The position numbers and the translations under genes are program-made. A DNA stretch of 64,000 bases from Dictyostelium discoideum. Its lineage: Eukaryota. Numbering within the stretch: the first letter of the stretch is position 1; every line of letters starts with the position of its first letter. Location: positions 1,184,001-1,248,000 of the forward strand of contig CM000151.3 in the NCBI GenBank assembly GCA_000004695.1. Reading direction: 5' to 3'. Under the pieces are notes generated by a model. That model was not told the origin of the DNA. It saw only the letters and a program-made list of their open reading frames with translations, and searched no databases. Shown here piece after piece: positions 19,890-59,718 of the stretch.

Positions 19890-22800
19890 ATGAAAACAAT
19901 ATCATTGCTTTTCTTTTTAATTATTTTTTTTTTTATAATAAAGAATATAAAATCAGAACAAACTGAAATTTATAGTTATAATTTCAATAATAATAATAAT
20001 AACATTAATAATATTAATAATAGTAATAATTTAATAAATATTTATTTAAGTTTAAGATTTGGAAATGATTCGTCAGGAAATGGAACTTTATCAAACCCAT
20101 TTCAAACTTTTTGTAAAATAGAATCCGTGTTAAAATCACAAAATAATAATAATTTAACAATAACAGTAAATGTTGGATATGGTCTTTATGATCAATCAAA
20201 TTGTATCTATTTTTCATTAGATAATATTAATTATGATATTATTATAAAATCTTATAATGATAGTAATAATATTGGCAATACTATGGAAAGTATTAGTATT
20301 GGTGGTAGTGATGGTAGTGATGGTAGTAGTAGTAGTAGTGATAATAATGAAATTATAGAAGGAAAAGTTTTAATTCATATTTATTTAAATATTATAAATT
20401 GTAAAATAATATTTAAAGGACCATCAATAACAATATATACGTCTGGATTGGAAGTATATAATAATAGTATAATTGAATTTTCAAATGGAGTTCTAGTGAA
20501 TTTTGGATATGAAGATTTTATACATCAAATGATAAGTTCAAAATTGATTTTAATAAATTCATCAATATCATATAATTCATATGGAGCATTAGTATTGGAT
20601 GATTGTATAATGGATATTTTAGATAATAGTACATTAAATAATATTACATTTAGTTTTAATCCAAATGAACTTTCGGCACCATTCAAGGGTATTAAATTTA
20701 CAAATAGTTTAGCGGTGAATTCAATGTTTGGAATGGGTACTTATGATTTAAATGTGACAAATTCAATTCTTCAAGATTGTGTCATAGAAAGCTCAGGTTT
20801 CACAACAATTAGTAGATCAAGAATTGAACAAACAATATCCAATAATTTAAATTTAATTCAAACAATTGATACCAATTCAATGATAAATTTATATGCAACA
20901 GTTTATACTAAAAGATTTGGTGCAAGACTTTTTATCAATCATACCAAAATAATAACATCACCAACAATAAATGCATTACCAATTTTAGAAGTGTATGCCA
21001 ATTCTTATACAAATATTGCAAATTCATTAATTAGTGGTTATCGTAAAACTACACCAATAATTTTAGCGGAAAATGGTGGTGATAGTTGTACAGTGGAGTT
21101 GAAGCATGTTCATATAGAGAATTGTATCTCTTCATCATTGGCGTCTTTAGCTATGAGTACATTGACGATGTATAATATTAGCTTTAAAAACAATTACCTT
21201 GACTCAATGGTGGTTGCAAATGATGCATCTTCTATAGAGTTAAGTGACACAGTAATAAAATGTGAAGATAACAATCAATTCCTTTCAACTATAACAATGC
21301 CAATTAATCCCAATAGTCCATACAGCCGTCCATTCTCTTCAAGAAGTACAGTGGTATTGAGTAATATGAACTTGCAATGTGTTGGTCCATTTGATTTTCA
21401 AAATTCAACAGTCACTTTTTTAAATATAACAATGTCATCATTATTTCAAAGTGCCTATGTTTCTCTATATTCAAATACTACTTTAGATGTCGCCACAAGT
21501 AGTTTCTCTTCAAGCTCGTATAATGGTGGTCAATTGTTTAGTTTGGGCGATAGTGGTATTTTGTATATTCTATATTGTAACTTTAATCAAAGTGCATCAT
21601 CAATAGTCCAAGGAAATGAAGGCTCAACTGCATTCATTGATTATTCAAATTTTTACAACATAAAATCCGATTACAATGCATTATTTGTTATTGCAAACTC
21701 ATCATTGATCATTTCAAATTGTTACTTTGAAAATATTCAAACCTCTCAAACAAGTTTAATCTCTGGTACCGATTCAATCATTTCCATTGAAAATACCACA
21801 TTGAAACGTATTGGTGTCTATTTAATGGAAACGTCAGATTGTAAAATCTTTATCACTGACGTTACAATGACCAATTGCTTTACATTAATGAATAAGTTAT
21901 TCATTTCTGTACGTGACCATATCACAATTCATTCTTCAAGATTTATAGATAATCATGGATATGGTGGTACACTAATTTCAACATATTCCAGTACAATCAT
22001 CTTTTCTGTTGTTGAATTTAATGGTAATTCATTCACTCCACTACTAAGCTCATTAGGATCAAGTGTTTATCTTACAAATGTCACCTATTACAATAATTCA
22101 GGTTCATTCATTGGTAGTACTAGTGATTTGGTTGAAATTAATCAATTCCAATATGAAAATAATAAAGCACCTTGTGATTATCTATTCAGTTTATCTGGTT
22201 CCTCACCTGTGATCATGAAATCCATAACCATAGAAAATAATTACTTTTCACAATACCTCATTTTCTTTACAGAAGTACATGGTATAGAAATTTCCAATTT
22301 CCAATTCATTAACAATATTGTAGTTTCAGTTAATTCACCATCACCATTCTTTGGAATTGGTTATTTTAATGCAACTTTACAATTTACTTTATGTTCCAAT
22401 ATTTCTATAGATGGTCTTAGAGTAGAAAACAATTCAATAGGGTCTGTGTTTTTATCAAATTATCTTTCTGATTTGGTTTTAAATAATTTATTCATCTCTT
22501 CAAATACATTCTCTGATAAATTTGGTGACTTTTTAAAAAGTTCAAATTCAAGTCTAATAATTGAATCTTCAGATTTTCAAAATAACATTAATAGTATTGA
22601 CTCGGTTTTATTGTCAATCATTGATACTAATACTACAATTGATGATTGTATTTTCTTTGGAAATCAAAATCCAAATGGTATTGGATCGGTATTAAATTTG
22701 GCAATAGAAAACCAACTTTATTACTTTACAATTATCAATTCATTATTTGATTCAAATTTTGCTTTAAATGGTGGAGTATTTGGCTTTACTGGTATTTCAG

Positions 22801-24028
22801 ATTACAATGAAGATGCATTTATTAATCCATTATCTAAATTCAATAATAATACTTTTAAAAACAATTTTGCATCTCAAAAAGGTGGTGTAATCTATACTGA
22901 TTACTTTACATTTTCAAATAATATTTCAAATATTTTAAATTTAAATAATTTTGAAAATAATACTTCATTACTTGGTCCAAATTTTTCATCTGGTATGTAG
23001 TAAATAATTTTATTATTATTATTAAAATTTAAAATATATTATTAACTTTTTTTAAAATTTATTTATTAGAAATGAACTTTAATATTATTGAATTTTCAAA
23101 TTTACCAGATGGTTCAACAGCAATAATTAAATATAGATTTATTGATTATTATAATAATACATTTACACTTTATTCAGATGAATTAAATTTTAAAATTATT
23201 AGAAATTCAAATGATGATCAAATAATTTATGAAAATAATGTAATGGCAGGTCAAGGTAGTTTTTTTTATAATTTTCTTGGAAAAGCTGGTGAAAAGTATA
23301 CTTTTGAATTTAATAATCCATTCAGTTTTAATCAAACCTTTTTCGTTGGCGATTGTTTACCATACCAAATCTATTTAAATTCAAGTGAAACTTGTTCATA
23401 TTGTCAAAATAATTATGCATATAGTCAATCATATGGAAAATGCTATTCATGTGATTCAGAAATAATGACATGTTTAACCTCAACTGTATTTGCAATCGAT
23501 GGTTATTATATAGTGAATAATGATGTTTCAATGGTTGAACAATGTCCATTGGATATGTGTCTTTCTTATAATCTTTGTACATCAAATTCTAGTTTTGGTG
23601 ATTTATGCTTTAGTTGTAAAGATGAATATGGTAATTTAGTTCAAACAAAGAATGGTATAAGATGTTGCTCACATTTTAAACCAATACTTTTAATACCAAT
23701 TTTAGCATTCCATTTACTATTTTCATTAGTATTATCATTAATTAAACACAATAGTTTTAGAATACCAATTAATCAAATTATAATATTCCTTCAAATTAAT
23801 TCAGTAGTATTCTTTTCATATAGTGGTATTTACATTTTACCATTATTCAGAATGTCAGTAGATATGTTAGATGGTTATTGTCTATGGGAAGGTTTAAATT
23901 ATAATTTCAAAAGTTTTTTATCATTTTCAATTATAATTTCATTATTTTTAATTGATTCAACTGATATTACACCTTCAATTTTAATTAAAATTTATAAAAT
24001 AATTTTATCATCATCAACATTTTACAAA

Positions 24029-24082
<54 letters not shown>

Positions 24083-24907
24083 CATTTCAAAAATAATAAA
24101 AATATAAATATAAATAGTAGTAATAGTATTTCAATAACAAAATCAATTGAAAAAGAAATATTAATTGAAAAAAGGTATCCAAATTTTTTAAAAGTAATTA
24201 TTAAAAATAAGACATTTGATGAAAGATCAGAATCAAATATTTATTATTGGAAATCTATTTGGTCATTATTTCAATTATTTGTAATTCCATTGGCATTCAG
24301 TGCAATATCATCAGTAATATCAAAACAAATTAATGGTGTAAATTATTTATCAGTAGATTTTTCAATCAATTATAATCAATCAAATTCAAATCAAGCTTGT
24401 ATTATAATTTCAATCATTATTTTCATGATACTGTTGATAGTATTATTCATGCAATTAATATTATTATTGACATTTAATTATGGTAATCAATTATTTAAAA
24501 ATAGAATTACACTTTATCTTCACAAGATTCAACAAACATTAAACTATAAAGAAGGTCTTAAATGGTTTGATCTCGTTATAAACCTAAAGTCTATACTTTT
24601 TTGTATCCTATCGGTCACTATGTTATTTAAAATGCAATTCTATACCGCTGCAACCATTCCAGTTCAAATCGTTTATTCTATAATTTATCTACTTGTAAAT
24701 CCAATTAAAAAAGTTCCTTCAAGAGATCCAAACAACTATATAAACCTATTACTATTAATAATATTTGTTGTTGCAAATTCAAATTTTCTACAATTAAAAT
24801 CAATCTTTAATCAAGGTTTAGCAATAACTTGTCTTTCATTCTTTTTTGTTTTTATTTTAATTATTTTCGTATTTTTATTTGATGGTAAAAAAAATAAAAA
24901 AAATTAA
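19890..24907 (+). CDS. Large secreted protein (~1646 aa) with Pmp/parallel-beta-helix-like repeats, a Cys-rich module and a ~9-TM C-terminal region; 2 exons
   Basis: Exon 1 is 19890..22992 (signal peptide MKTISLLFFLIIFFFIIKNIKS; N/S/T/I-rich repeats with F-x-x-N and GG[VAT][IL] motifs, e.g. FKNNFASQKGGVIYTDYFTFSNN; donor TCT G|GTATGT, phase 1). Exon 2 is 23070..24907 (acceptor tttattag|AA ATG, so ..SSG-E-MNFNII..). The Cys-rich stretch is CSYCQNNY..CYSCDSEIMTC..CPLDMC..CFSCKDEYGN..GIRCC. Hydrophobic helices follow, e.g. ILLIPILAFHLLFSLVLSLI, IIIFLQINSVVFFSYSGIYILPLF, ACIIISIIIFMILLIVLFMQLILLLTF and LAITCLSFFFVFILIIFVFLF. Confidence 0.85.
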
Positions 24908-25396: not shown

Positions 25397-26102
25397 TTAC
25401 CTTTTTGTTTTTGGTGTTGTTTTAGAAGAAGAAGAGGATGTTGTGGTGGTTGTTGTTGCTGCTGGAGGGGATGATTTTTGGAGTAAATGAGCAGGAGGTG
25501 GATGGGGAACATCAATAATTTTGTAAACTTCAAGATTGACGATAAAGCAATTGTCAACCAAGAAACCATTATTAGGATCTTCTAAAATTGATTTTTTAAT
25601 GACAGTTGTTTCACCATAACCATAGTTATACATCACTTGACTACTGTTATTTAATAATTCATTATCCCAATAAACTCTAATACTCTTTTTTGGATCAACA
25701 TTTAATAATTCAATACCAAATGAAATTATGATTGATTCATTCTCTTTCTTACATTTGTTTAAGTAAAATGATAAATAATCCTTCTCATTTTCAGTTTCAC
25801 CATTTATAAACAACTCTGAATAGAATTTATATTTACCTATAGTATGATTGTGTTTGATTGATACACCAACACCATGTCTAGCATTTAACTTTGTAAAATC
25901 TTTAAATAAAATTTGGTTCCTAAAAATTGTATTACTTCTATCAACCATAGCCATTTTATCATCATCATCATTTACTTTATCTTCACTTCCCATTTTAACA
26001 TCACCATTATCATTGATTTTACCATTTTCATTTTTACTATTATTGTCATTACTATCTTCAACATTTTCTCTATTTCTATCCTTTTTGATATCATATACAT
26101 TT

Positions 26103-26197
<95 letters not shown>

Positions 26198-27121
26198 TGT
26201 ATCTTCTACACTTTTAATGTTGTTGTTTTTGTTATCTTCACTTTCATTACTATCTTCATTTTCTTTATTTTTTTTAATATCTTCTAAAATGTCATTAGTT
26301 GGTTCTGTATCATTTGAAGTGTTTATATTACTATTTTCTTTTTCATTTTCTTTTTCATTTACATTTGCATTTGCATTTTCATTTTCATTTTCATTTTCAT
26401 TTTCATTTTCATTTTCATTTTCATTTTCATTTTCATTTTCATTTCCATTTCCATTTTGATTTTTTTGTTCTTGTTCTTTTCCTTGTTTTAATAATGATTT
26501 AGTTGGGCTAGAAGACTCAACTATTGATTCAATTATTTTTGTTTCAATTGATTCTTTTATATTTGTTTCATTTTCTTTATCAGTAGTAATTTCTGGCTCT
26601 ATCATAGAGTTAGATAAAACTTTTAGTGAGCTTATTGTTGAATTTTCTGTTGAATTTAGGATTGAAAATGATTCTGTTGTTTCTAAACCATCTTTTCCTT
26701 TTTCTTCAACTTTTTCTGATGTCCTAAGGGTTATAGTTTCTGTTGAATTTACTGTTTCTGCTGCTGTAGTTATTGTTGTAGTTGTTGTTGTAGTTGTTGT
26801 TGTTGTTTCCGCTGTATTATTGGATTCTTCTGTGGATTCTGATGCAGTTGCTTCTGTTGTTTCCGCTGTTGTAGTTGTGGATGTTGTTTCATTTATATCA
26901 GTCATTGATGCTTCATTATTAGTACCATTTAATATGGTATGGGTACTAGTAGTATTTGAGTTATTGGTTGCAGTGGCGGCAGTAATATTATCATCATCAT
27001 TATTTTTATTATTATTATTATTATTTTCATTAATATTATTATTAATATTTTCATTAATATTTTCCATTTGAATATCATTAGTAATAGTTGTATTTTGTGG
27101 TGGTAGTGGTGTTGGTGGTGG

Positions 27122-49761: not shown

Positions 49762-52700
49762 ATGAATAAAATATTATACTATTTATTATTATTTATATTC
49801 TTCTTTGTACATTACCTTAATTCACAACCACAACAACCACAAGAACAACAACGAGAGCAACAACCACGACTACAACAATCACAAGATATCAATAATGATA
49901 TAATAAATATTTATGTAAATTCAAATTATACCAATAGCAATGGTAATGGTACCATAGTAAATCCATTTCAAAATTTATGTGTGCTTAATAATTTATTACC
50001 AAGATTAAACAATTTAAACAATACAATAATAATAATAAATATAGGATATGGTTTTTATGATATTAAAAAATGCACTTTTTCTCAATTAATAATAAAAAAT
50101 TATAACAATATAACTTTTATACCATATGATTTTAATAATGAGAATAATAATAATAATAATAATAATAACAATAAAATAGTTTTAAAAAATACATATTTAA
50201 TTATTACAAATTCAACAATTAATTTTCAAAATGAAATAATATTAAATTTAAATGGTTTTTCATTTTCTTTTAGTCACATAGAGTTTAATGATGGAGTTGA
50301 AATTAATTTTCAAGGAACTTTACCAACGATAAATTATTGTAATTTAAAATTTAAAAATTCAAAATTTAATTTTTTATACTCCACATCTCATATGGAATGT
50401 ACAAATAGTTTAATTGAATTCATAGGATCAACATTGGGAGGTGGGGAAATTATATTTTATTCAGGTTTAGAACCAATAAAAGATAGTGGTATTATATTTA
50501 GAGATAATAGTTTTTCAATAAAGAATAATTTGAAAATGGCAGTTTATAAATTACATGTTGAAAATTCAGTATGGATAGATTCAACAGTATCAAGTTTTTC
50601 AAGTATTCATTTCAATGAAACTAATATTTTTAAATCACAAAATCAAAATGATAATCAACAACAACAACAAATAGAAGAAGATAATCCAATGTTTTCATTA
50701 TCAAATCAAGATTTATTTAAGATTAATGTAATTTTAAATATAGTGAATTGTAAAATCAATTATATTGATCCACATCAAGGTGAGACAAGTTATTCAATGA
50801 TTTCAATTTTTTCAAGTTTTCAACCAGTTATTCAAATGATTTCAATAAGTAATGTGGAAATCTCAGGATTTAATAGTAAACAACCATTAATTTTTCAAAA
50901 AGGTGAATCAAGTTCATTAGAAATTAATAATGTTCTCATAGAGAATTGTACATCATTACAATTTATAGATTCACAATCTGGTGATATAAAATTAAGTCAA
51001 ATGAAATTTAGAAATAATAAATTTAAAATATTAATTGAAATTAGAAATTCAAATCTTTATTTCTATGAAACTGGAATACTTTGTAGTGATAATAATGATA
51101 TAGGTTTAATGGTATCTTTTGATACTACAACCTATTTGTTAACAGAGGATGTAGAAACAGCAATAACAACAACAACATATGGTCGTAATAATATTTTATT
51201 AGAGAATTTAGTTTTTCAATGTTCAGGTTTATTTAATTTCATTAAATCTGATATTAGAATTGAAAGTGTTAGAATGGAATCATCATTTAAAAATTCATTA
51301 ATTTCACTTTATAATGATTGTTCAGCACAAATATCCAATAGTCAATTACTTTCAAATTCATTTGAATCAAAGTCATTATTCTATATAAATTCAAGTCAAT
51401 TATTTATATTTAATAGTGACTTTAGTGGTAGTACTGCATCATTTGTTTCAGCATGGAAAGATTCAATAATTTATTTAGAATCTACAAGTTGGAATAAATT
51501 ATTCTCAAAGGGTAAACCAAATTTTATTATCGAGGAATCCTATTTACATATTACAAATTCAACATTTGATGGTGTTCAATCATCTAGTGCACTAATTGAA
51601 AGTTATAAATCATATATTGATATTAGTAATACAACGATTAATGCATTTGGTAGTAAATCAATTCTTTATAGTGAATCTTCTCAATATGTAATTCTTAGTG
51701 ATTTGGTTTTAAATGGTTGTTTCTCTCAAGATCAATTATTTTATATATATCAAGCTCAAACAGTTGATATAAAAAGATGTATTTTTAATAATAATCGTGG
51801 ATATGGTTATAATTTATTTAAATTTATAAATTGTACCACTGTGAATATAGAGTTTACAAAGTTTATTGGAAACTCATTCTCACCATTAATTCAAAGTTAT
51901 CAATCAAGTTTAATTTTACAATCGATTACATTGATTGGTAATTCAGGTTCGTTCATTAATAGTATTGGTGATGTCATTGTGAAAGTTTATAATTTAACTT
52001 ATACAGATAATTTAATAACCTATGACTATTTATTTGTTTCTGAAAATACTCGATCGATTATTCTAAATTCCATAACTATCAATAATAATTATTTCAATAA
52101 TTTTTTATTCATTTTTGATAATGTATCAAATTTATTTTTTAATGATTTCACTTTATCAAATAATCTATTAAGTGAAATCGATAAAAACGATACACCAATG
52201 ATACTTTTTCAAAATTGTCAAATCACTTCATTCATTAATTTCAATATTATTAATAATTCAATTTCAAAATCATTATTCAAGTCTACAAATTCTAGATTGG
52301 TTTTTGCTCGATTAATATTTTCATCAAATCAAATCACTGGTATTGATAATAGTTTCATTGATTCTTTAACTTCAAATATTATAATTACAAATTCAATAAT
52401 ATCAAATAATAATGGTAATTGTAAAAGTTTAATAAATTTAAATGCTTGTTCTTTAACTATAGATTCAACTAATTTCCAAGGAAATTATTTCATTCAAAAT
52501 GGTGATGGATCAATTATTTCTTATAAATCTATTATCAATGAAAAGATTGGTAATAACTTTTTTCAAATTTCAAATTCAATATTTTATAATAATTTTGGGA
52601 AATTTGGTGCTGTTTTTTCATTTTATAATTTCTCACTTTTAAATGATACAAAATATCCAATCATTAATAATAATAGTATATTCAATAATAATAGTTTTAT

Positions 52701-54792
52701 TTCAAATACTGCCACTCAACAAGGTGGTGTTTTCTATACAAAAAATTTTTTATTTAATTTAAATTCAACTTTATTTAATTCAAATATTTTTTTAAATAAT
52801 ATTGCATTTTGTGGTATAAATTTTTCTTCAGGTTAGTATTATATAATTTATATAATAAATTTATATTTTTTAAGATTTACTAATAATTATTAATTATTTT
52901 TAGAATTTAATAAAGTAATATTTAAAAATAAAAATGTAATTAATGGTTTAAATTCATTAATTGAATATAACCTTTTAGATTATTATGGTAATATTTTTAC
53001 ACCATTATCAACTACTGTTAATATTAGTATAACAAGAGTATCAAATATGAAATCAATTATAATACCAAGTGTTATTATTGTTGGAGTTGGAAATTTTAAA
53101 TATCAATTTATTGGTGATTTTGGTGAAAATTATATTATTGAAACTATTAATGGTGATAATGATGATGATAATGATAATGATGATGATAAATCAAATATTT
53201 CATTTAAAGAAACAATTATGGTTTTAGGTTGTTTACAATATCAATATTTTAATGAAACCAATGATAGTTGTAATTATTGTTCAGTTGATTTCTCTTACAG
53301 TCCTTCATTAAAAAAATGTTATCAATGTGATCCTGATAAAATATCTTGTTTAACTTCATCAGTTGTTACAAATGATGGTTATTATTTAGTGAATCAAGAT
53401 GTTTCCATGGTTGAAGAATGTCCAGTTGCAATGTGTCTATCAAATAATACTTGTCTTTCAAATAATAGTTTTGGTAATTTATGTTTTAGTTGTAAAGATC
53501 AATTTGGAAATGTAATACAGTCAAAAAATGGTATAAGATGTTGTTCAAGTTTTAAACCAAATTTAATCATACCAATATTAATAATAGTTTATTTAATTTT
53601 TGGTTTATCATTATCATTATTAAAATATAATCTACTTGAAAAACCAATTGGTCAAATTATAATATTCCTTCAAATTAATTCTGTGGTATTCTTTTCATAT
53701 AGTGGTGTTTACATTTTACCATTATTCAGAATGTCAATTGACCTATTTGATGGAGTTTGCCTATTTAAAGGTTTAAATGCAAATTATAAATTTTTCATTT
53801 CACTTTTTATTATTACCTCATTATTTTTCATTGGTTCAACTGATATTACATTAAATCTATTAGAATTTACTTTAAAAAGAATTTTCAAATTTTCAAATTA
53901 TCCAAACTTTTTAAATAAAATTTTAATTGGTAAAGTTAATCAAGGTAAAATTTATAAATGGAAATCAATTTGGTCATTATATCAAATATTTATAATACCA
54001 TTATTATTTAATTCAATTTGTTTCTTAATTTCAAAAACTATAAATAATATTGATTATTTATCAATTGATTTTTCAATTAATTATAAATCAAAAATTAATC
54101 AACTTTGTATTACTCTATCAATTATAATTATTTTAATGATATCATTAATTTCTATAATTTCAATTATATCATTTTTAATTTTCAAATTTAAAACTTTAAA
54201 AAGAATTTTAAAAATTAATAATAGTAATAATAACTCAAATGATAATAATAATAATAATCAAAATTCAAATAATAGAAAATTAAAATCATATTTCATTTCA
54301 AAATTAAATTTAATATTTTTAAATTTTTATAGATTACAATTACAATTAAATTATAAAAGAAATTTTAAATATTGGGATAATTTAATATTATTAAAATCAT
54401 TATTATTAGTGATATTATCAATTTCTTTTATTTTTAATTTTAGTCATTTTATGACTTTTGTTATAACAATTCAAATCATATATACAACAATTCACTTTCT
54501 TTTTAATCCAATTAAAAAAGAACTATTACCAATAACAAATTTTAATAATTTAACAAATCTATTACAATTAATTATTTTCATCATTTCAGATTCAACATTG
54601 CTTAAATCAGTTTCATTATTTAATCAAGGAAAAATTTTAACAAGTTTATCATTTTTATTTTCTTTATTTATTTGTTTTAGTTATTATTATTATTATTACT
54701 ATTATTATTTTAAAAGAAATAATTTTTCAACAACAACAACAACATCAACAAATAATTTTGATTTTAAATCAAATCAATTAAAAAAATTATAA
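49762..54792 (+). CDS. Paralogue of the 19890..24907 gene: a secreted Pmp/beta-helix-repeat + Cys-rich + multi-TM protein (~1652 aa), 2 exons
   Basis: Exon 1 is 49762..52831 (MNKILYYLLLFIFFFVHYLNS signal; donor TCA G|GTTAGT, phase 1). Exon 2 is 52904..54792 (acceptor ttatttttag|AA TTT). The splice lies at the homologous ..SSG|E.. position of the paralogue. The conserved Cys-rich block is CNYCSVDF..CYQCDPDKISC..CPVAMC..CFSCKDQFGN..GIRCC, followed by TM helices. Repeat motifs include FISNTATQQGGVFYTKNF. Confidence 0.85.

Positions 54793-54869: not shown

Positions 54870-59718
<4,849 letters not shown>

Follow-up and report, generated by a model that had tools for sequence, protein, structure and literature searches.

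What do two very large genes that lie 30 kb apart on chromosome 2 of Dictyostelium discoideum encode, and to which known proteins are they related? The genes, here called gene 1 (19890..24907) and gene 2 (49762..54792, DDB_G0272102), are both located on the forward strand of contig CM000151.3 (GenBank assembly GCA_000004695.1), within the stretch of 64,000 nucleotides from position 1,184,001 to 1,248,000 that we refer to as the window and in which all coordinates below are counted. A preliminary description of the window, made from the sequence alone, had presented them as same-strand paralogs ~ 30 kb apart, each encoding a protein of ~ 1650 amino acids (aa). The spliced products indeed comprise 1646 aa (gene 1) and 1652 aa (gene 2), the gene starts are 29.9 kb apart, and the proteins are 35.5% identical over 1148 aa (E 1e-153). 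Both adopt a common module order, with a signal peptide, a ~ 1000-aa beta-solenoid, an Ig/FN3-like sandwich, a 12-Cys stalk and nine transmembrane (TM) helices. We propose, with a probability of roughly 0.6, that both genes belong to a Dictyostelid branch of proteins like the cysteine repeat modular proteins (CRMPs), in which beta-helix, sandwich, Cys stalk and 9-TM domain together form surface sensors of contact or glycans. The observation as such is confirmed, and the interpretation given to it earlier is partly supported; the likely CRMP-like nature of the stalk and membrane domain, as well as the Ig/FN3-like sandwich between beta-helix and Cys-rich module, had been missed.

Homology of the Stalk and Membrane Domain to CRMPs

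CRMPs are essential in Toxoplasma host-cell invasion and Plasmodium transmission. To compare them with the window proteins, we used two family profiles: A2, covering 16 sequences of the family, and the close-subfamily profile A1, covering the C-terminal ~ 600 aa of both window genes and three close relatives. The CRMP comparison set consisted of the TM regions of TgCRMPA/B and PbCRMP1-4 (S2 Table of PMC9815656). The A2 hidden Markov model (HMM) matches TgCRMPA with 37.5 bits, PbCRMP1 with 24.8, TgCRMPB with 18.5 and PbCRMP2 with 15.9, while 126 shuffled or reversed control sequences score at most 1.7 bits. Alignment of A2 with the six CRMPs by hhalign reaches 98.2% (E 4.3e-14) over 172 columns that correspond to TM4-TM8 and take in the motifs WW(D/E)..R(K/S) and P(F/Y/I)(D/K)K(R/K). 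The last hairpin of the stalk is in turn matched to the juxtamembrane Cys motif of the CRMPs (hhalign 94.1%, E 1.3e-7), and the HMM domain matches on the CRMPs are collinear over both halves of the module. The narrower A1 profile aligns with the CRMPs at 83.5% (E 8.3e-6), over TM6-TM7 only.

The homology can also be followed in the opposite direction. Among the relatives retrieved by the window-derived profile, an HMM made of CRMPs only scores 61.7 bits on Cyanophora P0065, 54.8 on Q86I19, 47.0 on Telonema P0056, 42.0 on Gefionella P0043, and 37.4 and 32.9 on the Dictyostelid proteins P0027 and P0031, with shuffled sequences at or below 2.0. Q86I19 has already been named a CRMP homolog (Singer et al. 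2023, PMC9815656), with a signal peptide, eight PbH1 repeats and TM helices in its domain table (S1 Data, PMC9815656). Its C-terminal part gives 119 bits with the A2 HMM (positions 25-540 of the model), and BLASTP relates it to gene 1 with an E-value of 1.7e-7. In a whole-database search, the window subfamily is connected to the Q86I19/P0027-like subfamily with E-values of 1e-14 to 7e-21, full length and collinear. The genes themselves are uncharacterized, and their kind is already mentioned in passing in the CRMP literature; what is new here is the homology of their stalk and 9-TM module to the apicomplexan CRMPs, as indicated by the profile comparisons.

The resemblance to the apicomplexan CRMPs (TgCRMPA/B, PbCRMP1-4, PfCRMP1-4) covers the large extracellular N-terminus, the Cys-rich juxtamembrane module, the nine TM helices, the two cytoplasmic motifs given above and the sequence homology of stalk and TM domain. 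In contrast, CRMP ectodomains are composed of EGF, ephrin-receptor-like, Kringle, lectin or MAR modules, where the window genes carry a beta-helix of ~ 1000 aa. Q86I19 (XP_643780.1) and its Dictyostelid relatives (P0027-P0032, P0046) share with the window proteins the signal peptide, PbH1 beta-helix, Cys-rich stalk and nine TM helices, but form a separate, more CRMP-like subfamily. Q86I19 is about 25% identical to gene 1, recognizable ephrin-receptor-like CxxCxxGxYG repeats are present in its stalk, and the intron of its P. violaceum relative follows the signal peptide.

Proposed Function

The behavior of the known CRMPs offers a starting point for the function of the window proteins. In Toxoplasma, a heterodimer of CRMPA and CRMPB, with predicted pairing of the 9-TM domains and exposed N-termini, is required for contact with the host to set off rhoptry exocytosis; at the exocytosis site, these A/B heterodimers are found with MIC15 and TSP1 (PMC9815656, PMC9670195). 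This rhoptry-site complex has no known counterpart in Dictyostelium. Tetrahymena CRMP1 and CRMP2, which are needed for regulated (mucocyst) exocytosis in a free-living protist (PMC9670195), offer a precedent for a non-parasitic role. As judged from their published description, they are CRMP relatives that differ from the window proteins in having five predicted TM helices and a GAIN-like domain (PMC9670195).

On the evidence of sequence and models, a cleavable-looking signal peptide directs the ~ 1200-aa ectodomain to the outside of the cell, and the stalk leads directly into the nine-helix domain with its cytoplasmic C-terminus. Extrapolating from CRMP biology (PMC9815656, PMC9670195), the beta-helix may bind a ligand outside the cell; a glycan or polysaccharide carried by prey, substrate or other cells would be the most likely candidate. 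The presumably rigid Cys stalk would couple the beta-helix to the 9-TM core, which in turn may pair with that of a paralog. The cytoplasmic motifs (Y/F)xWW(D/E)..R(K/S) and (N/Q)Px(K/D)K(K/R) could then relay the contact signal into adhesion, uptake or regulated exocytosis, for example. The presence of two old paralogs with diverged ectodomains fits a receptor family with diversified ligand specificity.

Several points weigh against this proposal. The CRMP-only HMM gives the C-termini of gene 1 and gene 2 scores of -11 and -21 bits, that is, no direct match, and the direct profile-profile signal is moderate, so that the homology is transitive via the Q86I19/P0027-like subfamily. Neither window protein reaches a Pfam gathering threshold. 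The evidence for the intron in each gene, presented below, consists of annotation and conservation. Our literature search yielded no functional data on gene 1, gene 2 or any Dictyostelid homolog. Ligand, dimerization and signaling are extrapolated from alveolate CRMPs with different ectodomains, and to our knowledge Dictyostelium has no rhoptry- or mucocyst-type organelle. Searches of NCBIfam with the window proteins returned no match, those of PDB sequences with both family profiles nothing below E 0.09, and literature searches on the gene identifiers no entries; we know of no solved structure of a CRMP homolog.

Taken on sequence grounds, the CRMP homology of the stalk and 9-TM module appears solid but transitive, and membership of the window genes in the CRMP superfamily is very likely. 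A receptor or adhesion role in general, which the preliminary description had also favored, is probable and the most reasonable reading of large, type-I-oriented polytopic surface proteins. The more specific idea of a CRMP-like heterodimeric trigger of secretion or uptake can be put forward only tentatively, by analogy. Equally speculative is the view of the two proteins as working CRMP counterparts, with 9-TM pairing, glycan sensing by fast-diversifying beta-helices and a cytoplasmic response in the form of uptake, adhesion or regulated secretion. Were they such counterparts, the signaling mechanism of the module could be dissected in a genetically easy amoeba. The shared module by itself makes candidate surface sensors of two "hypothetical proteins", and the Dictyostelium family, with the module on a different, fast-evolving ectodomain, offers a tractable free-living system for its dimerization, ligand binding and downstream signaling.

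The Ectodomain

The N-terminal parts of the two proteins are composed of the following segments:

19890..19955, + strand: signal-peptide-like segment of gene 1, MKTISLLFFLIIFFFIIKNIKS, with a hydropathy peak of 2.08 at aa 1-23; a helix at residues 2-20 followed by a disordered linker in the AlphaFold2 (AF2) model
49762..49824, + strand: signal peptide of gene 2, signal-like by hydropathy
20028..22979 (aa ~ 47-1030), + strand: predicted right-handed beta-solenoid of gene 1, from the AF2 model, Foldseek and Pfam matches of homologs
~ 49897..52821, + strand: predicted beta-solenoid of gene 2

The signal peptide described earlier for each protein is thus recovered as a hydrophobic, signal-like segment at the N-terminus. 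For the remainder of the ectodomain, aa 1-1034 of gene 1 were modeled by AF2 on an 11-sequence family alignment. The model (mean predicted local distance difference test score, pLDDT, 81.6; predicted template modeling score, pTM, 0.71) contains short strands only, with a repeat of ~ 20-25 residues. The cap motif NGNGTxxNPFQ marks the start of the solenoid, and FxxN..GGV[FI] occurs in its final two rungs. All top 50 Foldseek matches in the PDB are beta-helix proteins, among them PL6 alginate lyases, the epimerases AlgE4 and AlgG, phage tailspikes, Fap2 and Ag43, which share the right-handed parallel beta-helix. These are matches at the level of the fold only (best E 7.3e-5, 8-12% identity, template modeling score at most 0.29). 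Pfam Beta_helix is matched by neither the gene 1 nor the gene 2 protein, but by the N-termini of 4 of 11 homologs (best E 7.5e-15) and by P0030 of P. violaceum with 32.8 bits against a cutoff of 25.9. Model and homolog matches together support a right-handed parallel beta-helix as the predicted fold of the gene 1 ectodomain, in line with the preliminary description.

The repeat signature that had been proposed along with this fold, an F-x-x-N...GG[AV][IF] spacing throughout ~ 1000 aa, does not hold. Gene 1 has two GG[AV][IF] motifs and gene 2 a single one, all of them in the last rungs, and FxxN is found 16 times in gene 1 against 10.2 expected from composition, and 17 times against 14.5 in gene 2.

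Since the ectodomain model most closely resembles enzymes in its structure (PL6 alginate lyases, the mannuronan C-5 epimerases AlgE4 and AlgG, capsule depolymerases and tailspikes), one may ask whether the proteins are membrane-anchored carbohydrate-active enzymes instead. The beta-helix would then be a lyase, epimerase or hydrolase working on matrix, cellulose or bacterial polysaccharide, and the 9-TM domain only an anchor or a partner in polysaccharide export. We consider this unlikely, although it fares best among the alternatives. Beyond the fold-level nature of these matches, with no E-value better than 7e-5, no CAZy-type Pfam or PDB family is matched by sequence, and the adhesins Fap2 and Ag43 match the model equally well. 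The domain is also unlike one harboring a conserved active site: identity between the paralogous ectodomains is only 20-35%, few of their residues are invariant, and neither acidic nor basic residues form a conserved cluster.

Sandwich, Stalk and Membrane Domain

The C-terminal parts of the proteins, in which the CRMP-like module resides, are organized as follows:

23099..23347 (aa ~ 1045-1127), + strand: Ig/FN3/macroglobulin-like beta-sandwich of gene 1
~ 52921..53217, + strand: beta-sandwich of gene 2
23354..23668 (aa 1130-1234), + strand: Cys-rich juxtamembrane stalk of gene 1, 13 Cys
53230..53544, + strand: Cys-rich stalk of gene 2
23681..24892 (aa 1239-1642), + strand: nine-helix membrane domain of gene 1, from hydropathy, AF2 and CRMP TM homology
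24029..24082, + strand: poly-Asn tract of gene 1 (18 N) in the cytoplasmic TM3-TM4 loop, with pLDDT < 50 and no equivalent in gene 2
~ 53560..54708, + strand: 9-TM domain of gene 2, with a poly-Tyr run (54682..54708) at its end

The Cys-rich module noted previously is well defined, as 12 of the 13 Cys residues in the gene 1 stalk are invariant across 16 family members. In the AF2 model of the C-terminal part (gene 1 aa 1036-1646, 16 sequences; pLDDT 77.6, pTM 0.71), these 12 residues belong to a run of disulfide hairpins. Weak, sub-threshold matches to DUF7630, TNFR_ELAPOR1 and Ephrin_rec_like occur in some relatives only, and in neither gene 1 nor gene 2. Where the preliminary description counted about nine hydrophobic helices, hydropathy gives nine in both proteins and the gene 1 model agrees. 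The topology, with the N-terminus outside and the C-terminus inside, follows a positive-inside pattern of the loops. In gene 1, TM3 and TM4 are joined by the long disordered cytoplasmic loop with poly-Asn and TM4 and TM5 by a small extracellular hairpin (..VDFSI..); the cytoplasmic tail is Lys-rich, and KWFD..LKS and NPIKK are the conserved cytoplasmic motifs.

The end of the gene 2 protein differs between assemblies. The AX4 model holds the run of nine Tyr at 54682..54708. P0002, the 1624-aa model of a different D. discoideum assembly, matches it exactly through residue 1601 and continues with KIIFQQQQQHQQ. This discrepancy (window 54600..54792), which bears on the presence of TM9, goes back either to an indel or to a 3' end that was predicted differently.

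A long ectodomain on a polytopic membrane domain also brings to mind an adhesion-type G protein-coupled receptor (GPCR) that signals through heterotrimeric G proteins. In the same organism GrlP, GrlQ and GrlR join long beta-helix or "Chlamydia PMP-like" N-termini to a family-3 7TM domain (PMC1885808), a likeness that we draw from the published description, and PANTHER labels TgCRMPa and PfCRMP1 as GPCR-like (PMC9670195). However, the Grl proteins harbor a GABA-B-like domain of seven helices, not a CRMP-like domain of nine, and no 7tm Pfam match was obtained with either window protein or any of the 16 family C-termini. The CRMP authors likewise state that CRMPs are not bona fide GPCRs (PMC9670195). 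On the helix count and the missing 7tm match we reject a bona fide GPCR, and a GPCR-like mode of action analogous to that of GrlP/Q/R seems improbable.

Gene Models and Splicing

The reading of each gene as a single protein depends on one intron, which divides it into two open reading frames (ORFs):

19890..23000 and 23072..24907, + strand: ORF pair of gene 1 in the ORF list
19890..22992, + strand: exon 1 of gene 1, encoding aa 1-1034 and the first base of codon 1035; donor G|GTATGT
22993..23069, + strand: intron of gene 1, 77 nt, phase 1, GTATGT..TTAG, 6.5% GC
23070..24907, + strand: exon 2 of gene 1, encoding aa 1035-1646 and the stop codon
49762..52836 and 53047..54792, + strand: ORF pair of gene 2 in the ORF list
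49762..52831, + strand: exon 1 of gene 2
52832..52903, + strand: intron of gene 2, 72 nt, phase 1, GTTAGT..TTAG, 6.9% GC
52904..54792, + strand: exon 2 of gene 2

In both genes the exons contain 18-26% GC, in contrast to 6.5-6.9% in the introns. The spliced product of gene 2 is letter-for-letter identical to XP_645334.1 (DDB_G0272102, Q55A59) on chromosome 2. Conserved coding sequence (FNKVIF..DYYGN..), alignable with homologs, spans the 143 nt from its acceptor to the first ATG of the second ORF. The identical phase-1 intron position is annotated in the D. discoideum paralog P0004 (..NFSS|S..), and the homologous one in P0006 of D. purpureum (..YGS|G..). By the public gene 2 model, the conserved coding sequence up to the acceptor and these annotations, both introns are well supported. 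The single homologous phase-1 intron of the preliminary description therefore stands, but its placement at ..SSG|E.. needs correction. Each intron splits the GAA (Glu) codon right after ..NFSS, so that the spliced protein reads ..SSE.., and the G represents a codon of the unspliced read-through, not a residue of the product. In the relatives from Tieghemostelium lacteum (L003 1001..5553) and Polysphondylium violaceum (L004 1001..6761) the sole intron is positioned just past the signal peptide, ahead of the ..IYV..NGND.. cap, which makes the NFSS intron a trait of the Dictyostelium-proper clade and not of the whole family.

Annotation of the two genes is uneven. Exact look-up in protein collections found the product of gene 2, but neither the 1646-aa spliced product nor the exon-2 ORF product of gene 1, whose exon 1 is on record only as an ORF-level call from read assemblies (P0003). 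A Logan contig with this exon keeps the intron, and is therefore genomic and uninformative on splicing. In the existing annotation, gene 1 may have a different model, be listed as a pseudogene or be missing altogether. This absence from the collections, together with the decayed remnant that exists of one close relative (DDB_G0272352), could be taken to mean that gene 1 is unexpressed or non-functional, a pseudogene in the making, and that gene 2 alone works. Yet both exons of gene 1 are open over 4.9 kb in a genome of ~ 22% GC, where chance stops are frequent. None of the 12 family-invariant Cys has been lost and the TM motifs are preserved, the gene has canonical splice sites and confident AF2 models, and a failed look-up may only mean a different annotated model. 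We regard a loss of gene 1 function as improbable. The annotation could instead be amended, as gene 1 appears to merit a protein-coding model and the whole family could be named.

Divergence of the Paralogs

As the two proteins are only ~ 36% identical and about ten unrelated genes are located between them, the duplication must be old. A recent tandem duplication is rejected on the same grounds, and with it the "local gene-family expansion" of the preliminary description, as far as a recent event was meant. The divergence is distributed unevenly along the proteins. Identity between the paralogs amounts to 20-35% in the beta-helix ectodomain and, for gene 1 against gene 2, rises to 62-74% at aa ~ 1150-1350, which comprise the end of the Cys stalk and TM1-TM3. 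Over this stretch (window 23420..24020), gene 1 is 80-96% identical to P0007 of D. discoideum, against ~ 30% over the remaining protein. P0009 of D. dimigraforme displays the same pattern, with 78-92% identity to gene 1 at aa ~ 1150-1350. The block of high identity with P0007 and P0009 reflects either very strong constraint on the stalk and TM1-3 or gene conversion between paralogs. Such a mosaic fits a receptor family that diversifies its ligand-binding domains on a constrained signaling core, to which gene conversion could contribute. Low-complexity Asn-rich insertions are found in different cytoplasmic loops, TM3-TM4 in gene 1 (the poly-Asn tract listed above) and TM5-TM6 in gene 2 (54180..54270); they arose independently, and such expansions are tolerated at the cytoplasmic face of the membrane.

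Family Size and Distribution

An exhaustive search of 1.84 billion cluster representatives with the A1 profile returned 65 proteins at E <= 1e-3, including 36 at E <= 1e-10. Most are from Dictyostelia (D. discoideum, D. purpureum, D. firmibasis, D. dimigraforme, Tieghemostelium, Acytostelium and Polysphondylium), and all named matches are "hypothetical" proteins. Weaker matches, full-length or partial, come from Gefionella, Telonema, Cyanophora and metagenome eukaryotes. D. discoideum holds at least seven full-length members of the subfamily (gene 1, gene 2, P0004, P0005, P0007, P0008 and a third tandem gene), in addition to the Q86I19 type and the decayed fragment DDB_G0272352. This fragment (P0012; AX4 chromosome 2, outside the window), a "hypothetical protein" of 313 aa, has an identity of 91-93% with gene 1 over the last Cys hairpin and on to the end of TM3, and omits most of the mid TM domain thereafter; it is apparently what truncation or decay has left of a close paralog's copy. 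Three family genes encoding 1563, 1589 and 1588 aa are arranged head to tail within 11 kb on contig JBTAPG010000079.1 (L001 1..10847) of assembly GCA_054859355.1, with an opposite-strand gene of 499 aa between the second and the third. Unlike the dispersed pair in the window, this is a true tandem cluster.

Outside Amoebozoa and Alveolata, a CRMP-like stalk and TM module is attached to quite different ectodomains (P0057 and P0068 of metagenome eukaryotes, P0065, P0056, P0043); in one of these relatives, FG-GAP repeats occur together with Ephrin_rec_like and Chlam_PMP. The module thus appears to be an ancient one whose sensors have been exchanged. On the speculative view of the proteins as working CRMP counterparts, its presence in Telonema, a malawimonad and a glaucophyte would make it a pan-eukaryotic contact sensor of ancient origin and not an alveolate invention.

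The chlamydial Pmp likeness raised in the preliminary description, and with it the gain of a Pmp-type adhesin domain by horizontal transfer and its fusion to a eukaryotic anchor, is largely refuted and rejected here as highly improbable: a sub-threshold Chlam_PMP match at aa 988-1003 of gene 1 (E 0.06-0.11), weak matches in 2 of 11 homologs (best E 0.0029) and the FxxN..GGV[FI] of the last two rungs are in its favor, but the 13.3-14 bits remain below the 20.6-bit cutoff, the one or two GG[AV][IF] motifs per protein and the near-expectation FxxN counts do not make a Pmp repeat, the alpha-helical 9-TM C-terminus offers neither an autotransporter beta-barrel nor an autotransporter Pfam match, and relatives of the same architecture across Dictyostelia and other eukaryotes speak for a generic beta-helix inherited vertically within eukaryotes; the resemblance is that of any beta-helix. 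The proteins do share with chlamydial Pmps, Ag43 and Fap2, the latter two among the fold matches, a long right-handed beta-solenoid placed at the cell surface. The bacterial proteins differ in their outer-membrane beta-barrel translocators and their many GGA(I/L/V) and FxxN repeats.

Genomic Context

The window has a composition of ~ 22% G+C, and its ORFs are rich in poly-Asn and poly-Gln. It contains no third copy of the family and no tRNA genes. The genes between and around the pair are unrelated to it and encode RED-like, TRAF/MATH, eIF3a, FNIP-repeat and Kelch-RhoGAP proteins; examination of these neighbors suggested no functional link to gene 1 or gene 2. The 1523-aa Kelch-RhoGAP ORF opens with a run of ~ 50 Ile residues (window 59300..59441, - strand), which probably represents an AT-repeat upstream of the true start. 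Opposite the TRAF/MATH gene, two ORFs of 124 and 203 aa (25848..26459, + strand) are low-complexity antisense artifacts.

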